A stretch of 64,000 bases of DNA from Escherichia coli. Its GTDB lineage: Bacteria > Pseudomonadota > Gammaproteobacteria > Enterobacterales > Enterobacteriaceae. Under the pieces are notes generated by a model. That model was not told the origin of the DNA, did not search any database, and worked only from the letters and a program-made list of their open reading frames with translations. This document shows positions 761 through 21,385 of the stretch, piece by piece (position 1 is the first letter of the stretch; each line of letters starts with the position of its first letter). The stretch lies in NCBI RefSeq assembly GCF_044324875.1, contig NZ_CP172186.1. The stretch is one strand, 5' to 3'. Both the position numbers and the translations under genes were made by a program.

Positions 761-781
761 GTTCTCATCTCCCTTTTATTT

Positions 782-3146: not shown

Positions 3147-3368
3147 ATGAACTATGCCGGACACGAAAAACTTCGCGCCGACGTGGCGGAGGTGGCCAAT
3201 GCCATGTGCGACCTGCGTACAACCATGAATGAGATGGAGCGGCGGTACAGCTTTAATGCTGACACCCTGCCGGAACGTCTGGTGCGTCAGACGTTGTTTC
3301 GCGCAAACCGCCTCCTGATGGAGGCATATACCGAAATTCTGGAACTGGATTCCTGCTTCAAAGATTGA
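3147..3368 (+). CDS. hypothetical small protein, translationally coupled to the methyltransferase
   Basis: 73 aa; start overlaps methyltransferase stop (TAAATG). Confidence 0.45.
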   Translation: MNYAGHEKLRADVAEVANAMCDLRTTMNEMERRYSFNADTLPERLVRQTLFRANRLLMEAYTEILELDSCFKD

Positions 3369-3381
3369 GAAGGAGACGAGA

Positions 3382-3816
3382 ATGTACGGAACATGCGAAA
3401 CGCTATGCCGGGCGCTGGCAGCAAAGTATCCGGGAGATACGCCGCTGATGCTGGTTATCTGGTCCCCGGAAGAAATTCAGGCCCTCGCTGACGGAATGGA
3501 TATTTCCCTGTCCGATCATGAAATCAGGACTGTCCTGGCGCGGCTGGCGGACATCCCGGAAGACCAGCGGACTGAGTCCGGTATTTCTTCCGGCGTGGCG
3601 ATGGAGATTATCAGCAACGTGAGCGAAAACCGCCAGGTGACCGTCCCGGCTGAACTGCTGGCGTCCCTGATTCAGACCGCCGAACAGGCACTGTGGAAAC
3701 GTGAATGGGCCGCCCGTGATTACGGCCTCGCCGTCCCGGAATGCGTCACCCGCCGTCAGGCGGTGGTTAATCAGGCCCGCATCCTGCTGAAAAACAACCC
3801 ACACGAAAACGACTGA
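3382..3816 (+). CDS. leading-region hypothetical protein (paralog of 5518..5937)
   Basis: 144 aa; shares length, acidic character and a VTVPA motif with the 5518 ORF. Confidence 0.6.
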   Translation: MYGTCETLCRALAAKYPGDTPLMLVIWSPEEIQALADGMDISLSDHEIRTVLARLADIPEDQRTESGISSGVAMEIISNVSENRQVTVPAELLASLIQTAEQALWKREWAARDYGLAVPECVTRRQAVVNQARILLKNNPHEND

Positions 3817-3860
3817 TGTTATCGCCGCCTTCGGGCGGCGATTCAGGGAGACCATGAATC

Positions 3861-4631
3861 ATGAACAAAACGCTGAATGCACTGGTTTGTCACCACGCCC
3901 GTAACCTGCTGCTGGCGCAGGGCTGGCCGGAAGAGACGGATGTTGACCAGCGTAACCCGAAGTATCCGGGCTGGATCAGCATTTATGTTCTGCTGGATGC
4001 GCCCCGGCTGGCGACGTTACTTATCAACCGTCACGGCGGCGTACTGCCGCCGCTCCTGGCCTCCGCCATTCACAAACTGACCGGAACCGGGGCGGAAGTT
4101 GTACTGTCCGGCAGTCAGTGGCAGTCGCTGCCGGTACTTCCGGCAGACGGAACGCAGGTGTCTTTCCCGTATGCCGGAGAATGGCTGACCGAAGACGAAA
4201 TCAGGGCAGTTCTTGATGCAGTGCGCGATGCGGTACGCAGTGTCAGTTGCCGGGTGACAGAAGATGCGCGGCGTATCAGGGCGGCGCTGACCACAACCGG
4301 TCAGACGTTGCTGACCCGCCAGACGCGGCGCTTTCGCCTGGTTGTGAAGGAAAGCGATCACCCCTGCTGGCTCGATGAAGACGACGAAAACCTGCCCGTG
4401 GTGCTCGATGCCATCCTGAACCGGGGCGCTCGTTTTTCTTCGGTGGAAATGTATCTGGTCAGTGAGTGTGTGGAGCATATCCTGTCCAGTGGGCTGGCCT
4501 GCGATGTGCTGCGTATACCGGATGAACCGCCCCGCCGGTGGTTTGACCGTGGTGTTCTGCGGGAGGTGGTCCGGGAAGCCCGGGCCGAAATCCGCAGCAT
4601 GGCGGATGCCCTGGCAAAAATCCGGAAATGA
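3861..4631 (+). CDS. leading-region hypothetical protein
   Basis: 256 aa ORF, same strand and codon style as neighbours. Confidence 0.6.
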
Positions 4632-4687
4632 TGACGCTGGCGGGGAAAAATCTCCGCCTTTTCCAGCCGGTCCCCGGAAAGAGCAAA

Positions 4688-5040
4688 AGGATGTCGCCGC
4701 AGGCTCCGCTTTACTCGGCCATGCGGGGCATGGCCTTGTGGGTTTTCAGTTATGTGGCCTCAGCGTCGTGTGCGGGCTGTGCCGTGCCTCCATCGTAGCC
4801 GGGCTTCTGCGGGCGGGTTGCAAGGTAAGGTGAACCGCTGCGGTCACCCGGTCCCTCCTTCCCGTCTGCCGTGATTTTCCGGTCGTTCACCCGCTCAGAT
4901 TTCGCGGTCTCACCCTCCAACTCCCGCCAGCCGTGTGCGTCAGGCTGCGGCTTCCCTTGCGCCCTTGCAACCCTGCAGGCCCGGCAAAGATGGAGGCACG
5001 GCACCGCCCGGTGTCGCGGAATATGTGAACAACGGAGGAA
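4688..5040 (+). promoter_or_regulatory. single-strand-promoter-like structured element, family A copy 1 (upstream of klcA)
   Basis: ~350-bp GC-rich element with long-range inverted repeats (TGCCGTGCCTCCATC ... GATGGAGGCACGGCA), near-identical to 16918..17275. Confidence 0.5.
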
Positions 5041-5045
5041 ATCCC

Positions 5046-5471
5046 ATGCAGTATGCGAAACCTGTCACCCTGAACGTTGAAGAGTGCGACCGCCTTTCTT
5101 TTCTGCCTTACCTGTTTGGCAACGATTTTCTGTATGCCGAGGCGTATGTGTACGCGCTGGCGCAAAAAATGATGCCGGAATATCAGGGAGGCTTCTGGCA
5201 TTTCATCCGCCTGCCGGACGGTGGCGGTTACATGATGCCGGATGGCGACCGTTTTCATCTGGTCAACGGTGAAAACTGGTTTGACCGCACTGTGAGTGCT
5301 GATGCCGCAGGCATCATTGTTACGTCTCTTGTGATTAACCGCCAGTTGTGGCTGTACCACGACAGCGGGGATGCGGGACTGACACACCTGTACCGGATGC
5401 GTGATGCGCAGTTGTGGCGTCACATCGAATTTCACCCCGAATGCAACGCGATTTACGCGGCACTGGACTGA
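5046..5471 (+). CDS. klcA: antirestriction protein KlcA/ArdB family
   Basis: 141 aa from MQYAKPVTLNVEECDRLSFLPYLFGNDFLYAEAYVYALAQ..., recalled KlcA/ArdB signature. Confidence 0.75.
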   Translation: MQYAKPVTLNVEECDRLSFLPYLFGNDFLYAEAYVYALAQKMMPEYQGGFWHFIRLPDGGGYMMPDGDRFHLVNGENWFDRTVSADAAGIIVTSLVINRQLWLYHDSGDAGLTHLYRMRDAQLWRHIEFHPECNAIYAALD

Positions 5472-5517
5472 TTAACGGACGGGGCGGCAATGCCGCCCCT
5501 GTAAAGGAGACGAGAAC

Positions 5518-5937
5518 ATGTACTGTACTGTTAAAGAAATTATCCGCGAAGTGCTGAATACAGACGTGCCGGACAGTGAATGTGTTTTTGCCGTGGTGCT
5601 GACCCGCGGGGATGTGCGCCACATAGCCCGGGACTGGAACCTGTCAGACGATGAGCTGGAAACCGTCATGCAGCGGCTGGACGATGCTTTTGTATATGGC
5701 GCATGTGACAGAGTTGTTTCCGATATTGTCAATGAACTGATGGAGGAAAAGCGCGTAAACCGTCTTGTAACAGTTCCTGCGGTGCTGCTGGAAAAAGTGA
5801 TGGTGATGGCTGGTAGTGAAATTTATCGCCTCCATGCTGTAGGGAGCGAGAACGGGGGCGACGGTGACGCATTTGTCAGGGAAGAACGTGAGATTATGCG
5901 GGTAATGCGTCAGGCGCTGGACGGGGAGAACGGGTAA
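5518..5937 (+). CDS. leading-region hypothetical protein (paralog of 3382..3816)
   Basis: 139 aa; RBS GGAGACGAG. Confidence 0.6.
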   Translation: MYCTVKEIIREVLNTDVPDSECVFAVVLTRGDVRHIARDWNLSDDELETVMQRLDDAFVYGACDRVVSDIVNELMEEKRVNRLVTVPAVLLEKVMVMAGSEIYRLHAVGSENGGDGDAFVREEREIMRVMRQALDGENG

Positions 5938-6128
5938 TGAATATCAGCACGGAAACCCGCGAAATTCTGCGTAATTACAGGGCCGTGATTAATGCGCGGC
6001 GTCGTGAAATGGGGCAGAAACCGCTCACCACCGCGCAGATTGTTGATGAAATCTGTGATTTTGTGGCGAATCAGCAGGCGGTTTTCCTCGGTGGTCACTA
6101 TATCCTTCAGGGCAGCAGGCACAGGTGA
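5937..6128 (+). CDS. hypothetical small protein
   Basis: 63 aa, start overlaps previous stop. Confidence 0.35.
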   Translation: MNISTETREILRNYRAVINARRREMGQKPLTTAQIVDEICDFVANQQAVFLGGHYILQGSRHR

Positions 6129-6289
6129 TACAGGGGCAGGCGGTGGAGGCCGCCTGTCAGCCCGCGCGAAAACCCCTGGCAGGCTGGCGCCTGCCGGAAG
6201 GGATGCGGGCCACGCTGGCGCGTCGCCCGTTACCCTTCCTGTTGGTGACAGGCGTTGTTTCAGGAAGTACCTGTTACAGACCTGTCGTT

Positions 6290-6875
6290 AAAGAACCTTC
6301 TTACACATGCGCCCCTTCGGCTCCCGGCTGCCTGGCGGCATCCGGTCGTCAGGCCCGACTCCGACAGGCAGCTGCTGGCGCACCCGCCAGTCTCCGCCGA
6401 ACCCGCTGGCGCGGTTTCGGGCTGTCGCTACGGTCCGATGCGTGAAAACCCGGGCTTGCAGCGACCGTTCCGGTCGCGCCGCCTCTGTCGCGCCGTGACC
6501 TGCGCTCCCTGCACACCTGACGGTGTGTGAGGAAACTGCGCCTGATGGCGCAGCAGTCCTCCCTCCTGCCGCCACCTCTGCGGCCTGTTTCCCGCTGTGG
6601 ACTTTCCGGGGGGCAGACGTAACCCCCTCCCGTTCCATCTGTCCAGGGTGAGATGCACCGGCCACAAAATTTTTAGCCATGAACCCGGCAAAAAATTTTG
6701 CGTCCGCCCCCGGACAGCTGCCCCGTGAGGCGGTAAACGGGCCCCCATCGGAAAGGTCCACTGCGGGGAGAAACCCCTGTGAAGTGGACGGCAGGAGGAG
6801 CTTTCGCTCCTCTGAAGGGGCACATGAACGTCCCGTCGCCGGTATCCGGTTTATCTCACATCTTTCAGTCAGGAG
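6290..6875 (+). promoter_or_regulatory. single-strand-promoter-like structured element, family B copy 1 (upstream of ssb)
   Basis: ~580-bp GC-rich repeat also found at 17935..18505 and, 3' part only, 20990..21380; contains CCACAAAA(C/T)TTTT...GCGTC(C/T)GCCCCCGGACA(G/A)CTGCCCCGTG core. Confidence 0.5.
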
Positions 6876-6881
6876 GTTCTT

Positions 6882-9800
6882 ATGAGTGCACGTGGTATCA
6901 ACAAGGTCATCCTCGTCGGGGTGCGCCGTTGAAGCGCGGTGTTTTATGGAGTGTTGCCTGAAAAGCAACATGGCTTAGTGGTATAGCCATTGCATACTGT
7001 GGTTAGCCTTGCTTGGTAACAGGCTCGGAGATCCTGAAAAGGAGAGGTGAACATAGCATCCACAGAAAAGGGTGGTGAATATGGAAATCGTTATAAGTAT
7101 CACCATTCAATGCAAGATGTATATGGATAAACTGGGTTTGTTGAAGTCGAGATCTATGTGGGAAACAGGAAACCAATAACGCAGAACGATTGAAGCGTTA
7201 TTCCCGTACTAGCACAAGAAATCCGTCCGACGTTGATTGTGACCACTCTAACGGGCCAGCTATTGATGAAATAGTTAAACGATCGAAAGACATCCTAAGT
7301 ACATCGCATCTCCACACCGTGAAACTACGGGACTACCTAAACTGGATTTATACCCAGCATGGTAGCGGAGTCTCCATAGTACTCAAGGTCGGCCTGTAAT
7401 GGGTTCCGGCAGTCCGCATTATACGGAAGCAGCAAAGGTATAAATCAACCGGAAGGAAGATGAAAGCCTCACAGTGCTGCGGGGAAGGGAGACAGTTGTT
7501 AGATACATCAATCTCTAAGAGGAGGGTTAGCCAATGCTGCCTGATGAACTTGAGAAAAGATTAGATGGAATTGAGGATGCTTCAAAAAAAGGGTATCCAG
7601 TACGTAATCTATACAAAATTGCGTGTGAGCCCGGACTGTGGCTGCAAGCCTACGTGAATATACGGGCCAATGCAGGTGCACTGACTCAAGGTGTATCAAC
7701 AGATACCATTGATGGCTTTTCTATCGAAAGAGCAGAGAAGCTGGCAAAAACATTGCGGAGTAGAGAATACGTAGCGAAACCTGTACGCAGAGTTCAGATC
7801 CCAAAAAAGGACGGAAAAACCAGACCGCTGGGGATTCCAGGTGGAGACGATAAACTGGCGCAAGAAGTAGCAAGAATTATTCTGGAAAGGGTTTATGAAC
7901 CAGTATTCTCTGAACACTCTCATGGATTCAGACCAAAACGTTCGTGTGAAACTGCGCTCAGATCTATTCGTCCAGTCTGGAACGGAGTTAAATGGATCGT
8001 GGATGTTGATATCAAAGGTTTCTTTGACAATATCCCCCACAAACTATTGCTGAATACACTGGCAGAGAAAATTAAGGATAAGAATTTCCTGAAATTAATC
8101 GAACAGTGGCTGAAGGCAGGATATGTGGACAATTGGAAATACCATCGCTCATATTCTGGCACGCCACAAGGTGGGATAATTTCTCCCTTACTGGCAAATA
8201 TATACCTCGACAAACTGGACCGTTTTGTAGAACAGAATTTAATTCCTGCATATACAAGCGGTACAAAACGAAGAGCGAATCCAGATATGAACAGGCTGGC
8301 CCATAAGATTCATAAACTACGAAAGAAAGTAGACGGTATGGCAACTGATTCTGAATCAGAAAAAGAAGCCATAAAGAAAGAAATTGAACGACTGCTTGAA
8401 GAAAAACGTTCTATACCATCTCAGGTCATGAACGATCCAAACTTCAGGCGTATGTACTATGTTCGATATGCTGATGACTTCGTAATCGGTGTCATCGGCT
8501 CGAAGAAAGATGCTGAACATATATCAAGACAGGTCAGAAACTTTATTACTACTTCACTGGGATTGGAAGTTAATGAAGCAAAGACCAGGATCCGCCATAT
8601 CTCAGAAGGAGTTAATTTTTTAGGCTATGAAATCAGACAGGCAGATGCAAAGAAATTGCTGAAGCAGAAAATGCAAGGGCGGCACGCTCTCCGGAGATCC
8701 ACCACAGGAATTGTGCAGCTCTTCGTTCCTGACAATATAGCCGCTAAATTTTGTCACCAAAAGAAATATGGCTGTTATGAGAATGTGAAGGCTGTACATC
8801 GTTCAAGTCTACAAAATCTCAGTGAAGCTGAAATTGTTCTGACTTTCAACGCGGAAATGCGCGGATTGGCGAACTACTACAGTCTGGCGCTGGACATGAA
8901 ATATAAATTATCAAAATTATATTTCATATGGCAAATAAGCCTTTTTAAGACCCTGGCGAATAAACGACGTAGTTCAGTGAATAAAGTCGCCAAATCGCTA
9001 CGGCAAAATAATGGAGATCTGGCTATTACCGTTCAGGCCAAAAATGGATCCCGAAAGATTGAGGTTTTCAAACTCAAACATGTCAATCGCAACCGAACAA
9101 CGATTGTCGATACGGAACCGAGAACCGCACATATCACAACCCGCACAACAGAGATCATGCGTCGATTAGGGGCAAGGATCTGCGAGTATTGTGCGAAGAC
9201 TGGGCGCTGCGAAGTACATCATGTCAGAAAGCTAAAAGACCTGAAGAAAGGTCGTAAGGCCGGATATAAACCCAGCTTGTGGCAACTAATGATGATCGCA
9301 CGCCGCCGGAAAACGATGATTTTGTGCGCAAGTTGCCACGACAAGTTACATAGCGGAAAACTACCCGATTTGAGACAGGAAAAGGGAAGAATACTCCTGC
9401 AACCACCTGTCTCAAGCGGGGATTCTGCTAAATGAGTTTATCCCCAATAAGCTAGCAATGGAGAGCCGTATGCACTGAAAGGTGCACGTACGGTTCGGAG
9501 GGGGGGTAACGGTGATCTAACTCAAGATAAGCAGGACATATTCGCCATTTATCTTGAAAGACCACACGTACCCTACCCTACCGTCTGGGCAATGATCCGG
9601 AAGTCTGTTACATCCCCAACGGGGGCGCAGTGGCAAACCTGCAGGTCGCCACGTCAGAAAGCTGGCGCGACAAACAGACGGGGGAGATGCGGGAGCAGAC
9701 GGAATGGCACCGCGTGGTGCTGTTCGGCAAGCTCGCGGAAGTGGCTGGTGAATATCTGCGCAAGGGCGCGCAGGTCTACATCGAGGGGCAACTCCGTACC

Positions 9801-10064
9801 CGTAGCTGGGAGGATAACGGTATCACCCGTTACGTCACTGAAATTCTTGTTAAGACCACGGGCACCATGCAGATGCTGGGGAGTGCACCACAGCAGAACG
9901 CTCAGGCGCAACCGAAGCCTCAGCAGAATGGGCAGCCACAGAGTGCTGACGCGACGAAAAAAGGTGGCGCGAAAACGAAAGGCCGTGGACGTAAGGCCGC
10001 GCAGCCGGAGCCTCAGCAGCCGTCTGAACCCGCGTATGACTTCGATGACGACATTCCGTTCTAA
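6882..10064 (+). CDS. ssb: plasmid single-stranded DNA-binding protein, split by a group II intron (exon 1 6882..6920, exon 2 9582..10064)
   Basis: Exon 1 [13 protein letters not shown]; exon 2 [35 protein letters not shown]...DDIPF; exons are in frame and together match the plasmid SSB N-terminus. Confidence 0.8.
7534..9435 (+). CDS. group II intron-encoded reverse transcriptase/maturase with HNH endonuclease domain
   Basis: 633 aa; RT motifs [31 protein letters not shown]; C-terminal CEYC...HHV...CASCHDKLH zinc/HNH motif. Confidence 0.9.
   Translation: MLPDELEKRLDGIEDASKKGYPVRNLYKIACEPGLWLQAYVNIRANAGALTQGVSTDTIDGFSIERAEKLAKTLRSREYVAKPVRRVQIPKKDGKTRPLGIPGGDDKLAQEVARIILERVYEPVFSEHSHGFRPKRSCETALRSIRPVWNGVKWIVDVDIKGFFDNIPHKLLLNTLAEKIKDKNFLKLIEQWLKAGYVDNWKYHRSYSGTPQGGIISPLLANIYLDKLDRFVEQNLIPAYTSGTKRRANPDMNRLAHKIHKLRKKVDGMATDSESEKEAIKKEIERLLEEKRSIPSQVMNDPNFRRMYYVRYADDFVIGVIGSKKDAEHISRQVRNFITTSLGLEVNEAKTRIRHISEGVNFLGYEIRQADAKKLLKQKMQGRHALRRSTTGIVQLFVPDNIAAKFCHQKKYGCYENVKAVHRSSLQNLSEAEIVLTFNAEMRGLANYYSLALDMKYKLSKLYFIWQISLFKTLANKRRSSVNKVAKSLRQNNGDLAITVQAKNGSRKIEVFKLKHVNRNRTTIVDTEPRTAHITTRTTEIMRRLGARICEYCAKTGRCEVHHVRKLKDLKKGRKAGYKPSLWQLMMIARRRKTMILCASCHDKLHSGKLPDLRQEKGRILLQPPVSSGDSAK
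9461..9494 (+). ncRNA. group II intron domain V (catalytic hairpin)
   Basis: 34-nt hairpin GAGCCGTATGCAC-TGAAAG-GTGCACGTACGGTTC matching the domain V pattern. Confidence 0.65.
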
Positions 10065-10119
10065 CGAAAGACAGTGACAACCGCCCCGTCCAGTGCGGGG
10101 CATCACCGGAGAGATGAGG

Positions 10120-10353
10120 ATGAGCGAATATTTCAGAATACTTCAGGGACTGCCTGACGGTCCTTTTACCCGCAAACATGCCGAAGCCGTTGCCGCACAG
10201 TACCGGAATGTCTTTATCGAGGATGATCAGGGAACGCATTTTCGCCTGGTTGTCCGCAATAACAGTGGCCTGGTCTGGCGTACCTGGAATTTTGAGGACG
10301 GTGCCGGGTACTGGATGAACCATGCCATCCGTGATTTCGGCATTCTTAAGTAA
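10120..10353 (+). CDS. hypothetical small protein
   Basis: 77 aa from [10 protein letters not shown] (internal start of 10093..10353 ORF) after GGAGA RBS. Confidence 0.45.
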
Positions 10354-10416
10354 GAGAGGTGCCGGACGGGAACGCGTCCGGCAGACATACAACCATCCCG
10401 GTCAAAGGAGAAATAT

Positions 10417-12375
10417 ATGTCAGTTACAGAGTCTAAGACAAAAACGGAGCGTAAATCCAGCCGTAAACCTGCAAAAACGCAGGAAACCGTCCTGTCAGCC
10501 CTGCTGGCGCAGACGGAGGAAGTGAGCGTGCCGCTGGCCTCGCTGATTAAATCACCGCTGAATGTGCGCACGGTGCCGTATTCTGCGGAGTCTGTCAGCG
10601 AACTGGCGGACTCCATTAAAGGTGTCGGCCTGTTACAGAATCTGGTTGTTCATGCCCTGCCAGGTGACCGTTACGGTGTCGCCGCAGGCGGTCGCCGACT
10701 GGCTGCACTCAACATGCTGGCAGAGCGTGGCATCCTTACGGCTGACTGGCCTGTACGCGTGAAGGTTATTCCGCAGGAGCTGGCGACTGCCGCATCAATG
10801 ACTGAAAACGGTCATCGTCGGGATATGCACCCTGCTGAACAGATCGCCGGATTCCGCGCAATGGCGCAGGAAGGCAAAACACCTGAGCAGACTGGCGACC
10901 TGCTGGGCTATTCACCCCGCCACGTCCAGCGAATGCTGAAACTGGCAGACCTTGCACCCGTCATCCTTGATGCGCTGGCAGAAGACCGCATCACCACCGA
11001 ACACTGTCAGGCGCTGGCGCTGGAGAACGACACCGCGCGTCAGGTGCAGGTGTTTGAAGCCGCCTGCCAGTCAGGATGGGGCGGTAAACCGGATGTGCGG
11101 GTTATCCGCAACCTGATTACCGAAAGTGAAGTGGCGGTGGCGGGGAACAGTAAATTCCGCTTCGTGGGGGCTGATGCCTTCTCGCCAGACGAACTGCGCA
11201 CCGATTTGTTCAGCGATGACGGGGACGGTTATGTCGACCGCGTGGCGCTCGATGCCGCCCTGCTGGAAAAACTCCAGGCTGTCGCTGAACACCTTCGGGA
11301 AGCCGAAGGCTGGGAATGGTGCGCCGGGCGCATGGAGCCTGTCGGTGAGTGCCGTGAGGATGCCGGAACATACCGCTGTCTGCCGGAGCCGGAAGCGGTG
11401 CTGACGGAGGCGGAATACGAACGCCTGAACGAACTGATGACGCGTTACGACGCGCTGGAAAACCAGTGTGAGGAATCCGACCTGCTGGAAGCAGAAATGA
11501 AGCTGATGCGCTGCATGGCGAAGGTCAGAGCGTGGACGCCGGAGATACGTGCCGGAAGCGGTGTGGTGGTGTCCTGGCGTTATGGCAACGTATGTGTCCA
11601 GCGTGGTGTGCAGTTGCGCAGTGAAGATGACGCGACTGACGACGCTGACCGCACGGAACAGGTGCAGGAGAAAGCGTCAGTGGAGGAAATCAGCCTGCCG
11701 TTGCTGACGAAAATGTCCTCAGAGCGCACGCTGGCAGTCCAGGCGGCACTCATGCAGCAGCCGGACAAATCCCTGACACTGCTGGCATGGACGCTCTGCC
11801 TGAATGTGTTTGGCAGCGGGGCGTACAGTAAACCAGCACAAATCAGCCTGGAATGTGAACATTATTCGCTGACCAGCGATGCGCCATCGGGGAAGGAAGG
11901 TGCCGCATTCATGGCGCTGATGGCAGAAAAATCCCGTCTTGCAGCCCTGCTGCCGGAGGGATGGTCACGGGACATGACGACATTCCTGTCCCTCAGTCAG
12001 GAGGTGCTGTTATCCCTGCTCAGTTTCTGCACCGCATGCAGCCTTAACGGTGTCCAGACCCGTGAGTGTGGTCACACGTCACGCAGTCCGCTTGACTCGC
12101 TGGAAATCGCTATCGGATTCCACATGCGCGACTGGTGGCAGCCGACAAAAGCAAACTTCTTCGGACACCTGAAAAAGCCACAAATTATCGCAGCCCTGAA
12201 TGAGGCCGGACTGTCCGGTGCCGCACGGGACGCGGAGAAGATGAAGAAAGGTGATGCGGCTGAACATGCAGAGCACCATATGAAAGACAACCGCTGGGTT
12301 CCAGGCTGGATGTGTGCACCACATCCACAGACAGATGCCACTGAACGCACCGATAACCTGACTGATGCCGCCTGA
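10417..12375 (+). CDS. ParB/Srx-like nuclease-domain protein (large leading-region ParB-like protein)
   Basis: 652 aa; N-terminal ParB-like box ...VPLASLIKSPLNVRTVPY...GLLQNLVVHAL...GGRRLAALNML... Confidence 0.75.
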   Translation: MSVTESKTKTERKSSRKPAKTQETVLSALLAQTEEVSVPLASLIKSPLNVRTVPYSAESVSELADSIKGVGLLQNLVVHALPGDRYGVAAGGRRLAALNMLAERGILTADWPVRVKVIPQELATAASMTENGHRRDMHPAEQIAGFRAMAQEGKTPEQTGDLLGYSPRHVQRMLKLADLAPVILDALAEDRITTEHCQALALENDTARQVQVFEAACQSGWGGKPDVRVIRNLITESEVAVAGNSKFRFVGADAFSPDELRTDLFSDDGDGYVDRVALDAALLEKLQAVAEHLREAEGWEWCAGRMEPVGECREDAGTYRCLPEPEAVLTEAEYERLNELMTRYDALENQCEESDLLEAEMKLMRCMAKVRAWTPEIRAGSGVVVSWRYGNVCVQRGVQLRSEDDATDDADRTEQVQEKASVEEISLPLLTKMSSERTLAVQAALMQQPDKSLTLLAWTLCLNVFGSGAYSKPAQISLECEHYSLTSDAPSGKEGAAFMALMAEKSRLAALLPEGWSRDMTTFLSLSQEVLLSLLSFCTACSLNGVQTRECGHTSRSPLDSLEIAIGFHMRDWWQPTKANFFGHLKKPQIIAALNEAGLSGAARDAEKMKKGDAAEHAEHHMKDNRWVPGWMCAPHPQTDATERTDNLTDAA

Positions 12376-12429
12376 TGAACAACCACACCGCCCCGCCGGA
12401 GACGGGGCGGCAGCAAGGGAGATACCGTG

Positions 12430-12864
12430 ATGAAAACTGAACTGACCCTGAATGCCCTGCAGTCCATGAACGCACAGGAATATGAAGATATCCGTGCTGC
12501 GGGAAGCGATATGCGCCGTAATCTCACTCACGAGGTGATGCGTGAAGTGGACGCACCGGCTAACTGGATGATGAATGGCGAGTATGGCAGTGAGTTCGGG
12601 GGCTTTTTCCCCGTCCAGGTTCGTTTCACGCCAGCCCACGAACGTTTCCACCTGGCATTATGTTCGCCGGGAGACGTCTCTCAGCTCTGGATGCTGGTTC
12701 TGGTGAGTGGTGGTGGACAGCCTTTCGCCGTCGTTCAGGTGCAACATATCTTCACGCCTGTCGCGATCAGTCACACGCTGGCGCTCGCCGCGACACTTGA
12801 TGCGCAGGGATACAGTGTTAACGACATCATTCATATTTTGATGGCAGAAGGAGGTCAGGCATGA
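12430..12864 (+). CDS. psiB: plasmid SOS inhibition protein PsiB
   Basis: 144 aa [27 protein letters not shown]...[32 protein letters not shown]...; near-identical to recalled PsiB. Confidence 0.9.
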
Positions 12865-13071
12865 GCGCATGCAAAATGGCATCTGAATCGATCGCAGTTT
12901 GGCATTCGAATCGATCATGATTTGGCATCCATCTCCGATCACAGTTTGGCATCACAATCGATCACGATTTGGCATGCTTCCGATCATTGATTGGCATCCT
13001 GCCAGTCACTCCGGGAATTAACTCTTTTCACCACAGTCTCCATTGCCGTGTTTAAACCAGTGGAGACGTCA

Positions 13072-14637
13072 ATGTCCAGAAAGAGAAAATCCAGGAGCAC
13101 TATGGAAACCTGTTTTAAGATCCTTCAGCTCAAGTTCGACAAGAAGCTGACTAACCGTTGTATCGGACTGACGTTACACATCAGCGCCTCAACCGTTTTT
13201 GAGGTTCTTGCCCGCTTCAAAGCCTCTTCTCTGTCATGGCCATTACCTGCTGATATATCCCATGACACGCTGGAGAAACTCATTTTTCCGCCCAAAGACA
13301 CCTTTGCATCAGAGCTTGTAATGCCTGACATGTTGTACTTCGATACGGAAATGAGAAAACCAGGTGTGACGCGGCAACTGTTGTGGATGGAATACAAGGC
13401 ACAGGCGGGTAACAAAGCGATGGGATACTCGCACTTCTGCCGTTGCTACCGGGAGTGGAAAAAAACGCGACGTCTCTCCATGCGCCAGGAGCATCGTGCC
13501 GGCGAAAAGCTTTTTATCGACTTCTGTGGTCCTACGGTTCCTGTTATTAATCCGGACACCGGTGAGATACGCCGCGTGGCAATCTTCGTGGCCGTAATGG
13601 GGGCGTCCAACTATACCTACGTTGAAGCGTGCGAAGGTCAGGACATGATGTCATGGTTAAATGCCCACAGCCGTTGCCTGACCTTCCTGGGCGGCGTACC
13701 GAAGCTGCTCATCCCCGATAACCTCAGAAGCGCAGTGAAAAAGGCCGATCGATATGAGCCTGTCATCAACGACAGTTATCAGGCACTGGCTGAGCACTAT
13801 GGCACGGTTATCATCCCGGCCCGACCACGCAAACCTAAAGATAAACCAAAAGCAGAAAACGGCGTCCTCATCGTTGAACGATGGCTTCTTGCCCGCATCC
13901 GTAATGAAACCTTCCACACGCTCAGGGCGCTGAATGCGCGCCTTAGGGAGTTACTGACAGACATGAATAACCGGCCAATGAAGGGGTACGGCAATCAAAC
14001 CCGTGCAGAACGCTTCCGCATACTGGATGCGCCAGCACTCTCTCCGCTGCCTCTGGCACCTTATGAATACACGGAATACAAAGCTGTGAAGGTTGGCCCT
14101 GACTACCACGTTGAATATGCCCGTCACTGGTACTCCGTTCCACACGAACTGGTCGGTCAGCGTCTGTCACTGAAGGCGGGGCAGTCGGTGGTACAGCTCT
14201 GGCACAAGGGGCAGTGTGTGGCGCAACATCCGCGCAGCACACATGAATATAAACACACAACCAATCCGCTTCACATGCCAGAGCGCCACCGGCAGCACGG
14301 GACATGGACACCGGAACGCCTGATCGAGCAGGGAAAACGTACGGGCCCGTCCACAGGCCGGGTGGTTGAATCCATGCTGAAGGCAAAACCCCATCCGGAA
14401 CTGGCTTATCGTGCAGTTCTGGGGCTGCTGGCACTTCAGAAAAAATACGGCCCGGAACGGCTGGAAAAGGCCTGTTACGTTGCCCTGCACTATAACGCCC
14501 CTGACAGACGCTTTATCGACAATCTGCTGCGTCACCATCGGGAGAACCTGGAGCTTCCATTATCCCGCCAGGGCGAACAACATCCGGCATATGCTTCAGA
14601 GCATGAAAACCTGCGTGGTCCGGGCTACTACCACTGA
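13072..14637 (+). CDS. istA: IS21-family transposase IstA
   Basis: ~521 aa, HTH N-terminus and DDE integrase core; start chosen at MSRKRKS after GGAGACG RBS. Confidence 0.85.
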   Translation: MSRKRKSRSTMETCFKILQLKFDKKLTNRCIGLTLHISASTVFEVLARFKASSLSWPLPADISHDTLEKLIFPPKDTFASELVMPDMLYFDTEMRKPGVTRQLLWMEYKAQAGNKAMGYSHFCRCYREWKKTRRLSMRQEHRAGEKLFIDFCGPTVPVINPDTGEIRRVAIFVAVMGASNYTYVEACEGQDMMSWLNAHSRCLTFLGGVPKLLIPDNLRSAVKKADRYEPVINDSYQALAEHYGTVIIPARPRKPKDKPKAENGVLIVERWLLARIRNETFHTLRALNARLRELLTDMNNRPMKGYGNQTRAERFRILDAPALSPLPLAPYEYTEYKAVKVGPDYHVEYARHWYSVPHELVGQRLSLKAGQSVVQLWHKGQCVAQHPRSTHEYKHTTNPLHMPERHRQHGTWTPERLIEQGKRTGPSTGRVVESMLKAKPHPELAYRAVLGLLALQKKYGPERLEKACYVALHYNAPDRRFIDNLLRHHRENLELPLSRQGEQHPAYASEHENLRGPGYYH

Positions 14638-14653
14638 CAGAAGGAACAACAGT

Positions 14654-15409
14654 ATGAGTGATAACCTGTTAAACAAACTGACCCAACTGAAACTCCCGGC
14701 GATGGCCGGGAGCCTGATACGGCAGCGGGAAACGCCTCAGACCTACGACGAACTGTCGTTCGAGGAAAGGCTGACGCTGCTGGTTGATGACGAGCTTCTG
14801 AGCAGGGAAAACAGCCGTGTGGCACGGTTGAGAAAAAATGCCGGCCTGAAATACCAGGCAACACCGGAAGGGCTGCGCTATCCGGCCTCAAGAGGTCTGC
14901 GGGCTGAACAGATGAGAGAACTGCTGAACGGCCACTACATAACCCACAGGAAAAACCTGCTGATAACCGGTCCGACAGGATGTGGCAAGAGCTGGATAGC
15001 CAATGCGCTGGGCGAACAGGCATGTCGACAGAAACACAGCGTCCGGTACTGTAGAACCGGGCGATTACTGGAACAACTGGCTCAGGGACGTGTTGATGGC
15101 AGCTGGCTGAAATATCTGAAACAGTTGCAAAAAATACAGGTTCTAATCCTGGACGATCTGGGGCTGGAACAGTTAAGTAACGCCCAGTGTAATGACCTTC
15201 TGGAGCTCATAGAGGATCGTTACGGACAAAGCAGCACGATAGTGGTAAGCCAGTTCCCGGTAGATAAATGGCATGGTCTGATGGAGAACCCAACAACAGC
15301 AGATGCCATCCTGGACAGACTGGTACATAACTCACACCGAGTGGTCCTTCAGGGAGAGTCACTGAGGAAAAATCCCCCGGTAGTGGAAAGCAGCGAAAAA
15401 ACGCGTTAA
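14654..15409 (+). CDS. istB: IS21-family helper ATPase IstB
   Basis: 251 aa; Walker A LLITGPTGCGKSW, Walker B ILILDDLG. Confidence 0.9.
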   Translation: MSDNLLNKLTQLKLPAMAGSLIRQRETPQTYDELSFEERLTLLVDDELLSRENSRVARLRKNAGLKYQATPEGLRYPASRGLRAEQMRELLNGHYITHRKNLLITGPTGCGKSWIANALGEQACRQKHSVRYCRTGRLLEQLAQGRVDGSWLKYLKQLQKIQVLILDDLGLEQLSNAQCNDLLELIEDRYGQSSTIVVSQFPVDKWHGLMENPTTADAILDRLVHNSHRVVLQGESLRKNPPVVESSEKTR

Positions 15410-15509
15410 AAAGCGGTAGAAAAAGTTAAGTTCCCGGTTGATCGAATGGATGCGAATCGCTGATCGGACTTCGATGCCAATCCGTGATCGAATAGAGCGG
15501 AATACGCAA

Positions 15510-16225
15510 GCGCACGTTCACGGGCACTGATCCCCCTCAGCGCAGAACAACAGGCCGCTATGCAGGCTGTGGCTGTCACCGAACAACGTCGTCGTCAGGG
15601 ACGCACACTTTCAGCATGGCCTTATGCCACCGCTTTCTTTCGCTGCCTGAATGGCAGTCGCCGGATTTCGCTGACCGATCTCCGCTTTTTTGCCCCTGCG
15701 CTGACGAAGGAGGAATTTCATGGCAACCGTCTCCTGTGGCTGGCTGCAGTGGACAAACTGATTGAAAGTTTTGGTGAAGTCTGTGTTCTTCCCCTGCCAT
15801 CCGATGCGGGGCATCGTTTGTTCCCGTCCGTTCCTTTTCGTGAAGGTGAGCGGCGTCGTCAGAAAACCACGCTGACAGAGCAGAAATACAGCCGCCAGCG
15901 GGAACGTGAGGCAGAACGACGGGAACGGGAATACCAGACATGTTTTGCTCAGGCGCAGATTGACCTTGCGTTTCATACTCCCGCCACGGTCGGAAGCTGG
16001 TTGTCCCGCTGGTCTGGTGTTGTTGAGGAGCATGATCTGGAAACGATTTTCTGGGGGTGGTGCGGGCGTTTTCCATCACTGTCATCATTTGACCGGTTTT
16101 TCTGGCAGGAGGAACCACTCTGGCGGTTGATTTTTGAAGCCGGTGAGGCCGGTCGTGGTGCACCGGTACAGGTACGTGCACTTGAGCAGTGGATGATCCC
16201 GAACAAGCTGGAGAACGTAATATGA
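15510..16225 (+). pseudogene. psiA: plasmid SOS inhibition protein PsiA, separated from its first three codons (12861..12869) by the IS21-family insertion
   Basis: Joining ATGAGCGCA to the sequence after the IS gives MSARSRALIPLSAEQQAAMQAVAVTEQRRRQGRTLSAWPY..., matching PsiA. Confidence 0.8.
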
Positions 16226-16818
16226 TGAAATCAGACGAAAAATACCAGGTTCCCGCGTGGATGCGACCTCTGTTGCCGTTGCTCTGCAACACCGGGGAGA
16301 ACGATCCGGAAGAACTGCTGAATGATACAGAAACCACTGCCAGTGCGAATGTTGTCCGTTATGTGCTGATAGTTGCTGTGCGGTCGCAGGTTGATCTGCT
16401 GCAGCTTCTGTACAGGAAAGGGCTGTTGCGCACAGAGATACCAGGTGGCTTTTCACCGGAAGAAGCGCAGGAACTCCTGGATAATCTGGTGCGCAGCCAT
16501 ATCAGCAGGGCGCTGTCGGGTGAGCGAATGGCAGCCCGTGACAGGAATGCCGATCTGGCCTGGATTCGACAGCAACTGGTCGATGCCGCCTGGTTTGTCC
16601 GTGCCACACTGGAAGCGCATGGGATGAGCGTCGGAAATGAGAGTCCCCCTGCTCAGCCGGAGACAATGCCGGACATACAGACACGGGAACTGGTGATGTT
16701 GATCAAGCGACTGGCATCATCGCTGAAAGCGGTGAAACCGGACAGTTGTGTGGTGCGTGAAGCGCAGGACTGGCTGCGCGACAGAAAACTTGTGAGCATC
16801 ACGGATGTTCTTCGGTGA
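16222..16818 (+). CDS. leading-region hypothetical protein
   Basis: 198 aa from MMKSDEKYQ; start overlaps psiA stop. Confidence 0.55.
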   Translation: MMKSDEKYQVPAWMRPLLPLLCNTGENDPEELLNDTETTASANVVRYVLIVAVRSQVDLLQLLYRKGLLRTEIPGGFSPEEAQELLDNLVRSHISRALSGERMAARDRNADLAWIRQQLVDAAWFVRATLEAHGMSVGNESPPAQPETMPDIQTRELVMLIKRLASSLKAVKPDSCVVREAQDWLRDRKLVSITDVLR

Positions 16819-16917
16819 ACCAGTGGAGGTATGCTTGAGGAGCAGGGACATGCCGGCCATGATCGTTTCGTTCCAGGGGTGGTCTGGAGATCATGCGGCG
16901 TGTCCTCTGCACTCGCC

Positions 16918-17275
16918 GGAATAAGGACGTCGCCGCCGGCTCCGCTTTTACCCGGCCATGCGGGGCATGGCCTTGTGGGTTTTCAGCTCTGTGGCCTCAG
17001 CGTCGTGTGCGGGCTGTGCCGTGCCTCCATCGTAGCCGGGCTTCTGCGGGCGGGATGCAAGGTAAGATGAACCGCTGCGGTCACCCGGTCCCTCCTTCCC
17101 GTCTGCCGTGATTTTCCGGTCGTTCACCCGCTCAGATTTCGCGGTCTCACCCTCCAACTCCCGTCAGCCGTGCGCGTCGGGCTGCGGCTTTCCTTGCGCC
17201 CTTGCATCCCTGCAGGCCCGGCAAAGATGGAGGCACGGCACCGCCCGGTGTCGCAGAACATGTGACTATGGAGGA
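16918..17275 (+). promoter_or_regulatory. single-strand-promoter-like structured element, family A copy 2 (upstream of ardA)
   Basis: Near-identical to 4688..5040. Confidence 0.5.
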
Positions 17276-17282
17276 TTCGGGA

Positions 17283-17783
17283 ATGTCTGTTGTTGCACCT
17301 GCTGTATACGTTGGAACCTGGCACAAATATAACTGCGGAAGCATCGCCGGCCGCTGGTTTGACCTGACCACGTTTGATGATGAACGCGATTTTTTCGCCG
17401 CCTGCCGTGCCCTTCACCAGGATGAAACCGATCCGGAACTGATGTTTCAGGATTATGAGGGTTTCCCGGGGAATATGGCCTCTGAATGTCATATCAACTG
17501 GGCCTGGGTTGAAGGCTTCCGCCGGGCACGGGATGAAGGCTGCGAAGAGGCTTATCGTCTCTGGGTGGATGATACCGGTGAGACGGATTTTGACAGCTTC
17601 CGCGATGCCTGGTGGGGCGAGGCTGACAGTGAGGAGGCTTTTGCGGTTGAGTTCGTCAGTGATACCGGCCTGCTGGCTGACGTGCCGGAGACGGTGGCGC
17701 TCTATTTTGACTATGAGGCGTATGCGCGGGATTTATTCCTGGACTCCTTCACCTTTATTGACGGTCATGTGTTCCGTCGGTGA
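17283..17783 (+). CDS. ardA: antirestriction protein ArdA
   Basis: 166 aa MSVVAPAVYVGTWHKYNCGSIAGRWFDLTTFDDE...; acidic DNA-mimic, matches recalled ArdA. Confidence 0.9.
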   Translation: MSVVAPAVYVGTWHKYNCGSIAGRWFDLTTFDDERDFFAACRALHQDETDPELMFQDYEGFPGNMASECHINWAWVEGFRRARDEGCEEAYRLWVDDTGETDFDSFRDAWWGEADSEEAFAVEFVSDTGLLADVPETVALYFDYEAYARDLFLDSFTFIDGHVFRR

Positions 17784-17934
17784 TTTACTCCCCCGCTCCG
17801 GCGGGGGTATGGCCTGCCGGGCCGCCGGAAAACCCTGGCAGGCTTACGCCTGCCTGAAATACAGGAGGGCCGCGCCTGCGGCGCTGCCCTTCCTGCCCGT
17901 CATGGTGTGAGGCATTTTTCTGTTTTGTCGTTTC

Positions 17935-18505
17935 TGTTGTTCTGATGCCCGGAGGCGGGGACACCCTTCGGCTCCCGGCTGCCTGGCGGCATCCGGTCGT
18001 CGGCCCGACTCCGACAGGCAGCTGCTGGCGCACCCGCCAGTCTCCGCCGAACCCGCTGGCGCGGTTTCGGGCTGCCGCTACGGTCCGATGTCTGAAAAAC
18101 CAGGCCTGCAGCGACCGTTCCGGTCGCGCCGCCCCTGTCGCGCCGGAAACGGCGCTCCCTGCACACCTGACGGTGTGTAAGGCCACTGCGCCTGATGGCG
18201 CAGTCAACCCTTCCGCCGCCACCCCTGCGGCCTGTTTCCCGCTGTGGACTTTCCGGGGGCTGAAGCGGCCACAACACGGGGCAGCCGTCCAGGGGAGAGA
18301 TGTACCAGCCACAAAACTTTTTGCCGCAGGCGTCAAAAACTTTTGCGTCTGCCCCCGGACAACTGCCCCGTGCCGTGGCAGTCGCTGCCCCATCGGAAAG
18401 GTCCACTGCGGGGAGAAACCCCGAAGAAGTGGACGGCAGAAGGGGCTTTCGCCCCTCCGGGGGAGCAACCGGTCGGCCCGGCGACCTGATTCAGCAGAAG
18501 GAGAC
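17935..18505 (+). promoter_or_regulatory. single-strand-promoter-like structured element, family B copy 2
   Basis: Near-identical to 6290..6875. Confidence 0.5.
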
Positions 18506-18511
18506 GTTTTC

Positions 18512-18946
18512 ATGACAGTCAGCAGCACGATTTCCGTTTTTTGCCGAGACGGGGTGTTCCGTACCGTTTACTGCCACCTGCACGGTGAGCCGACCTGGAA
18601 CGGTCGCATCCTGCATACCCACTATGCCACCGGTCAGCTGGCCGAAGCCCTGGTTGAACACGGAGATATCCGTTGCCTCGGTCCCCGTTGCGACAAACCC
18701 GCCGGGCATACGCTTCAGAACCCGGTGGACGGTGTGACGGCTTATTACGGACGTGACAGTGGTTTCCGGATGGACAGTGAGGCGCGTGAGTACCGTTCTT
18801 TCAGGGAGGCTATTGCCACTGAAAGCACTGAAGAGGTGCGCTTCCATTATGTGTTCATCGACGGCTACTGGAAGGTGATGTACCGCACGCCGGAAGGCTG
18901 GAAGATGAAAGCGCTCGCGCTGGCACTGCGTCGCTGTCCGGAATGA
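18512..18946 (+). CDS. hypothetical protein directly downstream of a family-B element
   Basis: 144 aa from MTVSSTISVFCRDG; GAAGGAGACG RBS; the long 17945..18946 ORF upstream of this start is the repeat element read in frame. Confidence 0.6.
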   Translation: MTVSSTISVFCRDGVFRTVYCHLHGEPTWNGRILHTHYATGQLAEALVEHGDIRCLGPRCDKPAGHTLQNPVDGVTAYYGRDSGFRMDSEAREYRSFREAIATESTEEVRFHYVFIDGYWKVMYRTPEGWKMKALALALRRCPE

Positions 18947-19037
18947 AAAAAAGCAGGGCGATAAACCCTGCCTCTCTCCGCCGCTGCTTCCCGGCCAGGA
19001 AGAGCGGCAGTCATCAACAACATAAGGAGAAATATTT

Positions 19038-19304
19038 GTGAGACCATCAATTATCTTCGCAACCGCCGAGTATGTAAAGCGTCTGCGTGAAGAGTGCCTG
19101 CGGGAGAATAAACCCCTGCACCGCCATACCCGCTTCAGACGTCAGGAGCTGGCACAGGATGAGATTAACCCGGACGTCCTGGCGATGAGCGGTCATATCG
19201 CCAGACGCTGCAGTGAGCAGAAGCGGGTGCGTATCCCCGCCATGAAAGTCAGCGAATGGGGCCACCTGCTCCGCGCGCTTGAAATTGAACGGGTCTGTCA
19301 CTGA
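19038..19304 (+). CDS. hypothetical small protein (GTG start)
   Basis: 88 aa; AAGGAGA RBS 8 nt upstream. Confidence 0.4.
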   Translation: MRPSIIFATAEYVKRLREECLRENKPLHRHTRFRRQELAQDEINPDVLAMSGHIARRCSEQKRVRIPAMKVSEWGHLLRALEIERVCH

Positions 19305-19368
19305 TTAACCCTTGCCGTCTGCCTGTGCAGGCGGCAGGATACGTTCAGACATCTCACCAGGAGGAACC

Positions 19369-20247
19369 GTGAGTAAGAAGAAAAACACCACAACGCCCAC
19401 GCCGCATGATGCCGCGTTCCGGTCGTTCCTGGCGAATCCCGACGTTGCCAGGGATTTTCTGGAGTTGCATCTTCCTGCGGAGTACCGGCAGTTGTGCGAC
19501 CTGTCCACCCTGAAGCTGGAACCCGCCACCTTTGTTGAGCCGGACCTGCATCAGTACGCCAGCGATATCCTCTGGAGTGTGAAAACCACCGGGGGTGAAG
19601 ACGGCTATGTTTATACGCTCATCGAGCACCAGAGCACCGAAAATCTGTACATGCCTTTTCGCATGTTACGTTACAGTGTGGCGGCGATGCAGAGACATCT
19701 GGAGCAGCACAAAACGTTGCCACTGGTCATTCCGGTGCTGTTCTATCACGGTGAGCGCAGCCCGTACCCGTACAGCATGAACTGGCTGGACTGTTTTGAG
19801 AATCCGGCACTTGCGGCTAAAATATACACAAAGCCGTTTCCGCTGGTTGATATCACTGTCGTTGATGACAATGAAATCATGAACCATCGCCGGATGGCCG
19901 CACTGACGCTGCTGATGAAGCATATCCGCCATCGTGACATGATGGAGCTGCTGGACAAACTCCCGCAGGTCATGGTGGAAATTTCAGACGAGCAGGTGCG
20001 TGTTCTGATTCATTACATCGTTAACGCAGGGGACACTGTATCACCGGAATTTATGCGGGCGCTGGCCGAGCGCCTGCCGCAGCATGAGGATAAACTGATG
20101 ACAATCGCAGAACGTCTTGAGCAGAAAGGTGCGCTTGAAAAAGCCCTGGCCATTGCGCGTCAGCTTCAGAAAATGGGGATGACACCTGAGCAGATTAAGC
20201 AGGCCACCGGACTTTCCGAAGCTGAACTGAAAAAAGTCATTCACTGA
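19369..20247 (+). CDS. rpn: Rpn-family (YhgA-like, PDDEXK) recombination-promoting nuclease
   Basis: 292 aa from GTG after AGGAGG RBS; ...TPTPHDAAFRSFLANPDVARDFLELHLP...DILWSVKT...YTLIEHQSTENLYMPFRMLRYSVAAM... typical Rpn N-terminal nuclease domain. Confidence 0.8.
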   Translation: MSKKKNTTTPTPHDAAFRSFLANPDVARDFLELHLPAEYRQLCDLSTLKLEPATFVEPDLHQYASDILWSVKTTGGEDGYVYTLIEHQSTENLYMPFRMLRYSVAAMQRHLEQHKTLPLVIPVLFYHGERSPYPYSMNWLDCFENPALAAKIYTKPFPLVDITVVDDNEIMNHRRMAALTLLMKHIRHRDMMELLDKLPQVMVEISDEQVRVLIHYIVNAGDTVSPEFMRALAERLPQHEDKLMTIAERLEQKGALEKALAIARQLQKMGMTPEQIKQATGLSEAELKKVIH

Positions 20248-20259
20248 TGAGAGCATCAC

Positions 20260-20285
20260 AGCCCGGCAAAATGCCGGGCTTTTTG
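20260..20285 (+). terminator. intrinsic terminator after rpn
   Basis: AGCCCGGCA-AAA-TGCCGGGCT followed by TTTT. Confidence 0.5.
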
Positions 20286-20308
20286 CCAGCAGGAGCAGAG
20301 CAAACAGC

Positions 20309-20527
20309 ATGACGATTGCAGAACGTCTTATACAGAAAGGTTTCGACGAGGGTTTTAAAGAAGGTTTTAAACAAGGTTTTAAACAAGGTTTTAAACAAGG
20401 AGCTCTTGAAGTGGCGCGGGAAATAGCCTGCCGGCTTCGGGATATAGGCTGGTCGCCGGAACGGATTCAGGAGGTCACGGGACTTTCCGGTGAAGAACTG
20501 AAAAAGCTGTTTCCTGATGAGCAGTAG
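20309..20527 (+). CDS. free-standing Rpn C-terminal-tail (RpnS-like) small protein with GFKQ repeats
   Basis: 72 aa MTIAERLIQKGFDEGFKEGFKQGFKQGFKQGALEVAREIACRLRDIGWSPERIQEVTGLSGEELKKLF; parallels the last ~50 aa of the upstream Rpn (MTIAERLEQKGALEKALAIARQLQKMGMTPEQIKQATGLSEAELKKVIH); AGGAG RBS. Confidence 0.65.
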   Translation: MTIAERLIQKGFDEGFKEGFKQGFKQGFKQGALEVAREIACRLRDIGWSPERIQEVTGLSGEELKKLFPDEQ

Positions 20528-20557
20528 CCTGGCATTCAGCCAGGCTGTGAATCACGC

Positions 20558-20809: not shown

Positions 20810-20823
20810 AAAACACCTTTGAA

Positions 20824-21380: not shown

Positions 21381-21385
21381 ACAAT

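Follow-up and report, generated by a model that had tools for sequence, protein, structure and literature searches.

A ParB-like gene in the leading region of an IncK2/Z-type plasmid is a probable orthologue of YfjB/HerB of the F plasmid

What does a large ParB-like protein do when its gene lies among the early conjugation genes of a plasmid? The question is raised by an open reading frame for 652 aa at 10417..12375 (+ strand) of a 64,000-nucleotide stretch of DNA from Escherichia coli, hereafter the window. An earlier note, made from the sequence alone, had placed this gene between ssb and psiB, and our ORF list together with Pfam and NCBIfam searches found the placement to be exact. The second exon of ssb, encoding a plasmid SSB (9582..10064, + strand; Pfam SSB, NF010292), and a DUF905 gene (10093..10353, + strand; Pfam DUF905, E = 4.1e-33) precede it, and psiB, the conjugation SOS inhibitor gene (12427..12864, + strand; Pfam PsiB, E = 8.8e-57; NF010255, 265 bits), follows. 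The DUF905 gene, called yfjA in F and ykfF in IncI plasmids, carries the same label in the annotations of F and of the reference plasmid pLH50-c-A. The 652-aa gene, for which we use the name herB, starts with an ATG that has a ribosome-binding site (AAGGAG) 7 nt on its 5' side. Because this ATG is the first start codon past an in-frame stop, the gene has no upstream extension. Profile matches, with psiA found past an IS21-family element, give the order ssb-DUF905-herB-psiB-psiA, a leading-region operon. Searching the + strand from ssb to psiB (ssb, DUF905, herB, psiB) for terminators returned nothing beyond weak matches to the consensus, at 6922 and 10143. Two antirestriction genes are found in the same neighbourhood as ssb, psiB and herB.

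The best plasmid hit of the window by BLAST was pLH50-c-A (NZ_CP100501), which is typed IncK2/Z, MOBP and MPF_I and is 99.9-99.99% identical to the window over positions 1..27032, with two differences in that interval, both of them insertions. The window is that of an IncK2/Z-type plasmid. Its nikA and the relaxase gene nikB occupy 22891..25937 (+ strand; Pfam NikA-like and Relaxase/TraI_middle). Assuming the transfer direction of IncI1, we take oriT to lie just left of nikA, at about 22.7-22.9 kb, and the region to its left to be the leading region, with genes presumably read from the transferred strand in the direction of oriT, as in plasmids of the IncI type. Upstream of ssb, BLAST against F and alignment with its Frpo1 and Frpo2 revealed an Frpo/ssi-type single-strand promoter region (6313..6812, + strand), the core of which (6441..6513) is near-identical to both F Frpo1 and Frpo2. 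The - strand of 6340-6640 has a predicted fold of -80.3 kcal/mol (z = -3.6 vs shuffled controls). A hairpin is thus predicted on the transferred (-) strand, from which transcription would run rightwards into ssb-herB-psiB. Related copies of this promoter region were detected by BLAST within the window at about 17964-18457 and 21013-21341, which fits the three ssi-driven operons described on IncI plasmids (Benz and Hall 2023, PMC10104558).

Compared with YfjB of the F plasmid (yfjB, NC_002483 59538..61496), the window protein has the same length and aligns without gaps, with 615 of 652 residues identical (94%); the 37 substitutions are relatively more frequent in D3, the third of the four domains described below. 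The same gene has been given several names: yfjB on F (Couturier et al. 2023, PMC9849209), parB2 on pED208 (PMC8406263), yfhA on IncI ESBL plasmids (PMC10104558), yubM in UniProt and, since a preprint of July 2026, herB (PMC13370423). We consider it likely that the window ORF and F-plasmid YfjB/HerB are orthologues, the former on an IncK2/Z (I-complex) backbone, and that the full model of HerB function applies to the window protein. The gene and its family have already been described and are not new. The remaining doubt concerns the mechanism, given a single preprint and host-dependent effects, and not the identity of the gene. At ≥90% nucleotide identity, herB is present in at least 5000 plasmid records, most of them conjugative and from Escherichia, Salmonella, Klebsiella and Shigella, and its usual database label is 'ParB/RepB/Spo0J family partition protein'.

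The domain content of the protein was examined with Pfam and NCBIfam. ParB_N covers residues 41-131 (30.8 bits vs a cutoff of 26.3) and HTH_ParB residues 136-222 (34 bits vs 22.6), while TIGR00180 (parB_part) scores 61 bits, just over its cutoff of 58.45. No Pfam family matched residues 236-652 even at E<=10, nor did any NCBIfam model. The ParB-type N-terminus proposed in the earlier note is therefore borne out, and the unrecognised part amounts to about 420 aa and not to about 500. The domain search that the note had suggested for the C-terminal part returned nothing in Pfam or NCBIfam and no PDB relative, in agreement with the preprint, in which D3 and D4 are described as new domains of a homodimeric protein (PMC13370423). 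With the limits given there, HerB consists of a CTP-binding ParB N-domain (D1, ~24-136), an HTH domain (D2, 137-235), D3 (238-417) and a dimerisation domain (D4, 418-636) followed by a flexible tail. Judged by its sequence, the window protein has this D1-D4 architecture, which the preprint uses to define the family (at least 80% of each domain covered). CTP-binding box II (GGRRLAA at 91-97, including R94) and box III (E130-N131) are intact, so that CTP binding is predicted, and the HTH residues R168, R172 and K175 are present as well. All five residues mutated in the preprint (R94, E130, R168, R172, K175) are thus kept here.

An AlphaFold2 model built with a homologue alignment (pLDDT 90.5, pTM 0.73) showed domain breaks at about 235 and 410-420; the stretches of low confidence were 410-420, the D3/D4 linker, and 469-475, a loop. 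D4 is confidently folded in the model, and its role in dimerisation is predicted. Foldseek matches in the PDB reached only residue ~220. The best were Noc, ParB of Myxococcus, Bacillus and Caulobacter (several of them nucleotide-bound), Spo0J and KorB of RK2; sulfiredoxin appeared with just E = 0.02, far below ParB, Noc and KorB. Sequence and fold searches found no HerB entry in PDB copies dated up to April 2026.

To describe the breadth of the family, D3-D4 (residues 236-652) was searched by itself against 1.84 billion cluster representatives (50% identity) from public genomes and metagenomes. There were 2127 matching protein clusters at E<=1e-3, of which 1054 stayed at E<=1e-10. This is far above the 429 plasmid and phage homologues that the preprint counted, under criteria that differ from ours (PMC13370423). 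Full-length matches were 600-720 aa long with the module beginning at about residue 205-270, the same architecture as HerB. Across 82 aligned full-length homologues (27-56% identity), G91, R94, N131, Q209, L264, W627 and P629 never vary, and E130 is kept in 81 of the 82; R168 is variable, and positions 172 and 175 are mostly basic. D3 and D4 are about as conserved as D1 and D2 in this alignment. Ten distant homologues gave N-terminal NCBIfam matches only, as did the query, and the D3-D4 module is without a curated model in Pfam or NCBIfam. A full-length family of unknown function in PHROGs, phrog_7783, matches HerB. Few phage records hold a homologue, among them three cyanophages and two gut contigs; the preprint likewise reports three cyanophage homologues (PMC13370423). 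Two distant homologues sit on contigs of 2-3 kb, too short for gene context. Another, on a Pseudomonas plasmid, is an orphan about 9 kb from a relaxase gene, and that plasmid has its own parA and small parB elsewhere. Relative to F, dN/dS was 0.14 for the whole gene, with 0.07 in D1-D2, 0.27 in D3 and 0.11 in D4. Since the whole-gene value is this low, herB is intact and under purifying selection in the window plasmid.

The function of HerB has been approached through its orthologues. YfjB-sfGFP was undetectable in donors and was seen in transconjugants before the plasmid turned double-stranded; the yfjB operon of F is driven by the single-strand promoter Frpo2, and leading-gene expression is transient, with a shut-off explained by the single-strand promoter becoming duplex (Couturier et al. 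2023, PMC9849209). By analogy with F, herB would be silent in donors, and the hairpin promoter of the entering single strand would switch it on within minutes. ParB2 of pED208 is translocated through the T4SS into recipients, and deleting it left both transfer and the SOS response to mating unchanged (Al Mamun et al. 2021, PMC8406263). The structural and cellular work comes from the preprint (PMC13370423). It reports structures of D1-D2 bound to CTPγS and Mg (crystal, 2.6 Å) and of a new dimerisation core in D4 (cryo-EM, 3.6 Å), as well as nucleoid-associated foci that require D4, the HTH residues R168/R172/K175 and the CTP residues R94/E130 and that form even without F. Extrapolating from F, the protein would dimerise through D4, bind CTP and DNA with its two ParB-like arms, and assemble as a CTP-dependent clamp visible as foci on the recipient nucleoid.

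In the same preprint, ChIP-seq in transconjugants gave 156 chromosomal peaks without a consensus and none on F, and RNA-seq found 505 genes repressed and 361 induced (PMC13370423). Deletion of herB left transfer frequency unchanged and raised the acquisition cost by ~10%, and the herB-deleted plasmid fell progressively in multi-cycle competition. If the window allele behaves alike, HerB would occupy some 156 chromosomal regions that share no parS-like consensus, would leave the plasmid unbound, would shift several hundred host genes (central carbon and redox metabolism, ribosome hibernation factors) and would lower the transient acquisition cost, giving the plasmid an advantage over repeated transfer cycles. 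We infer that this mechanism carries over to the window locus, since all residues tested in F are the same in the window protein. The best-supported function is that of a transient, CTP-dependent ParB-like clamp on the recipient chromosome. The functional model rests on one mid-2026 preprint, with most of the omics done under ectopic expression, and the reprogramming could partly be an overexpression effect. The fitness effect of the F orthologue is small (~10%). Two IncI ESBL plasmids, nearer to the window backbone than F is, acquired parallel loss-of-function mutations in the ssi3 operon, and deletion of yfhA raised the transfer rate in one host strain and changed nothing in another (Benz and Hall 2023, PMC10104558). 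From this last result, the benefit of HerB depends on the host and the protein can be a liability.

Other readings of the gene were weighed against this one. Its database label would make HerB a true centromere-binding partition ParB of a type Ia ParABS system, and the ParB N-domain and HTH expected of such a protein are there, with ParB_N and HTH_ParB above their cutoffs and TIGR00180 just over its own. However, no parA lies beside herB among the window ORFs or in pLH50-c-A, the neighbours being ssb, DUF905 and psiB, so that the cognate parA in the operon is lacking. The short C-terminal dimerisation domain of ParB is lacking too, its place being taken by the 417 aa of D3-D4. The plasmid has its own modules elsewhere: in pLH50-c-A, a ParA/small-protein pair and a ParM/stability-protein pair are located 8-10 kb upstream of herB, and the last gene of the ParM pair is the Plasmid_stab_B gene (Pfam) at 105..497 of the window. 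Canonical parS was not above chance, with one match carrying 3 mismatches vs 2.0 expected, in a search that a divergent site would escape. In F, moreover, the gene is off in established donors (PMC9849209) and plasmid positioning is unchanged in the yfjB deletion (PMC13370423). The earlier note had thought a role in partition unlikely, given the position of the gene; the missing parA and the separate upstream modules of the reference plasmid uphold that view, and we regard the partition reading as close to refuted, with a very slight chance of being right.

The same note had called the N-terminal part a ParB/Srx-like nuclease domain and had found a role in processing or protecting incoming DNA plausible; HerB would then be a nuclease or NTPase of this fold, acting as an anti-defence or DNA-repair helper. 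Some ParB/Srx-fold proteins are indeed nucleases, and herB is found among ssb, psiB and two antirestriction genes. That the pED208 orthologue crosses the T4SS into recipients (PMC8406263) is in keeping with such a role. Yet the N-domain is of the CTP-binding ParB type, with GGRRLAA and E130-N131 adjoining an HTH_ParB domain and with nucleotide-bound ParB, Noc and KorB as its nearest structures. The F orthologue was crystallised with bound CTPγS (PMC13370423), sulfiredoxin reached only E = 0.02 in the fold search, and PADLOC gave no match. Deleting the gene leaves both transfer frequency and SOS induction unchanged (PMC8406263, PMC13370423), and the target that experiments support is the recipient chromosome and not the incoming plasmid. 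Neither part of the note's proposal is supported, and we hold a nuclease or protective function to be quite improbable. A Nature paper of 2024 on anti-defence and a 2026 preprint on delayed complementary-strand synthesis are both silent on HerB; ParB figures in them just as a tool or in the references. HerB could also be a plasmid-directed regulator like KorB, a clamp on the incoming plasmid that silences or times plasmid genes, with host effects being secondary. D1-D2 resemble KorB of RK2 (8qa8/8qa9, E about 1e-7 to 1e-6), the deletion of yfhA raised IncI plasmid transfer in one host (PMC10104558), and the leading genes are expressed transiently (PMC9849209). Against it, F itself was not enriched in ChIP-seq of transconjugants and was not needed for foci (PMC13370423), and promoter conversion to duplex DNA already accounts for the shut-off of the leading genes (PMC9849209). 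Beside herB there is no partner gene resembling those of KorA or IncC, and a local inverted-repeat search found no inverted repeats or operator flanking it. This reading seems improbable to us, and a clamp directed at the recipient chromosome remains the preferred one.

The two insertions that distinguish the window from pLH50-c-A both fall in the herB operon. A group II intron of 2661 bp (6921..9581, + strand), sense to the operon, interrupts ssb after the first 38 nt (exon 1, 6883..6920, + strand), which read ATGAGTGCACGTGGTATCAACAAGGTCATCCTCGTCGG and are followed by GTGCG, the 5' end of the intron. Against the intact ssb of pLH50-c-A, the break lies at L001 11165/11166. Rfam RF00029 (domain V/VI) matches 9461..9581 (67.4 bits), its last position coinciding with the 3' boundary of the intron, and the intron-encoded protein ORF (7534..9435) has RVT_1, Intron_maturas2 and HNH domains. 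Residues 2-144 of exon 2 match positions 31-175 of NF010292, so that the N-terminus is absent from this exon. The intron junction in ssb was found in 124 plasmid records, which indicates that the lineage persists. The second insertion is an IS21-family element (istA, istB) of 2639 bp (12870..15508, + strand; Pfam rve, Mu-transpos_C_2 and IstB_IS21) at the overlap of the psiB stop and the psiA start. Comparison with pLH50-c-A revealed a 6-bp target duplication (AGCGCA), and a 100% identical copy of the element lies inverted at 41687..44325. The body of psiA, mapped from pLH50-c-A (15509..16225, + strand), is severed by the element from its start codon and from psiB; the ORF that begins at the internal ATG at 15560 matches positions 19-236 of the PsiA profile.

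With 2.66 kb of intron between the promoter and herB, expression of herB is probably delayed or lowered, and the intron in ssb together with the IS element at psiB/psiA may alter or reduce it. One could go further and propose that the insertions are not neutral, that synthesis of the reverse transcriptase/maturase in the zygote suits retrohoming, that the intron lowers the dose of HerB and PsiB while the IS element uncouples psiA, and that the whole amounts to a natural counterpart of the host-specific tuning by loss of function that experimental evolution produced in the ssi3/yfhA operon (PMC10104558). We think this rather unlikely; were it true, each new host would produce the intron's reverse transcriptase/maturase within the first minutes of receiving the plasmid, when the timing favours retrohoming. 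Mobile elements have entered the ssb-herB-psiB operon repeatedly. Both the intron and the IS element have hit an operon known for disruptive mutations (Benz and Hall 2023, PMC10104558).

For the window, the main result is the right label for herB. The annotation 'partition protein' is widespread and misleading for this gene, and HerB-type proteins are encoded on thousands of resistance plasmids. HerB is apparently the first leading-region factor shown to act on host physiology and not on host defences.

How, then, does HerB compare with known systems? With chromosomal ParB/Spo0J (1vz0, 6sdk, 7bm8) it shares the CTP-binding N-domain with its GxxRxxA and EN motifs, followed by an HTH domain. It differs in having no ParA partner beside it, no canonical parS above chance and, it seems, no segregation role, in being made only transiently after conjugation, and in carrying D3-D4 (417 aa, without a PDB relative) where those proteins have a C-terminal dimerisation domain of ~70 aa. 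KorB of RK2 (8qa8/8qa9) and Noc (7nfu, 7ol9) are likewise ParB-fold CTP switches put to uses other than segregation. KorB, however, represses transcription with KorA at specific operators of its own plasmid, whereas HerB is reported to bind many regions of the host chromosome without a consensus, and Noc binds the membrane as well as specific NBS sites on the chromosome, in contrast to HerB, for which no consensus is reported. The ParB of PRTRC systems (TIGR03734) and the PRK13832 proteins resemble HerB in being ParB-like, long (555-578 aa) and encoded on mobile elements, and their N-terminal 160-200 residues align with HerB. TIGR03734 scored 74.5 bits on HerB vs a cutoff of 278.6, over profile positions 6-163 of 555 only, and PRK13832 ('plasmid partitioning protein') scored 40.6 vs 640; membership of HerB in either family was rejected on these scores, which lie far below the cutoffs and come from the ParB part only. 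The comparison with HerB/YfjB of F sets a backbone of IncF with MOBF/MPF_F against one of IncK2/Z with MOBP/MPF_I. In the window, the operon is also broken up by the group II intron within ssb and, between psiB and psiA, by the IS21-family element. The two plasmids nevertheless share the ssb-DUF905-herB-psiB-psiA operon and, upstream of it, an Frpo-type single-strand promoter.

Among 82 homologues of HerB (27-56% identity), the most conserved stretch of D4, the dimerisation domain, corresponds to herB residues 610-629 (about 12244..12303 in the window). This stretch carries the motif KMKK..AA..AE....RW.P, in which W627 and P629 do not vary at all, and K610 and A618 hardly vary. A conserved basic patch has been reported in the D4 sub-domain containing these residues (PMC13370423), and candidate partners of the motif include DNA, the coupling protein of the T4SS and some factor of the host. 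HerB homologues were also found in phage-labelled records. The PHROG family phrog_7783, a full-length family with no assigned function, matches HerB residues 37-644 (E = 2.6e-254), and MT836029.1, an unannotated human-gut contig named 'Bacteriophage sp.', encodes a homologue at 9414..11288 with 31% identity over 94% of the protein. Such records may correspond to phage-plasmids or to misclassified plasmid contigs.

The intercistronic gaps on either side of herB each contain a GC-rich hairpin (10357..10392 and 12386..12412), with the sequences CCGGACG...CGTCCGG and CCGCCCCGCCGGAGACGGGGCGG. Neither is followed by a T-tract on the + strand, and both are candidate structures that may stabilise or process the transcript. 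Further downstream, a 2,639-bp IS21-family element (istA/istB) at 12870..15508 lies at the psiB/psiA overlap with a 6-bp duplication (AGCGCA), separating psiA from its own start codon. A second copy lies at 41687..44325 in inverted orientation. Because the two copies are identical (100%), recent transposition of this element is suggested, and the 26-kb segment between them could undergo inversion. The next ORF after psiA (16189..16818, 209 aa) overlaps the psiA end and is probably the final gene of the early operon to which psiA belongs. Pfam and NCBIfam searches with this ORF returned no match, and it is annotated as hypothetical in the near-identical reference plasmid pLH50-c-A (NZ_CP100501).

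The plasmid ssb gene is also interrupted, being split after 38 nt (exons 6883..6920 and 9582..10064) by a group II intron (6921..9581) that lies in sense orientation relative to ssb and contains an RT-maturase-HNH ORF (7534..9435). An identical exon-intron junction was found in 124 plasmid records from E. coli and Salmonella. The intron is located immediately 3' of a Frpo-like single-strand promoter.

Two types of repeats were observed in front of leading-region genes. A 354-bp direct repeat (4687..5039 and 16923..17275), with approximately 95% identity to its pLH50-c-A copies, is present once ahead of each of two antirestriction genes, an Antirestrict/KlcA-like gene (4935..5471) and ardA (17202..17783), and could represent a second type of early or single-strand promoter element. 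The other type, the Frpo/ssi-type region, occurs as three related copies (6313..6812, 17964..18457, and 21013..21341), one heading each + strand gene block of the leading region. The core of the copy at 6313..6812 is near-identical to Frpo1 and Frpo2 of the F plasmid.
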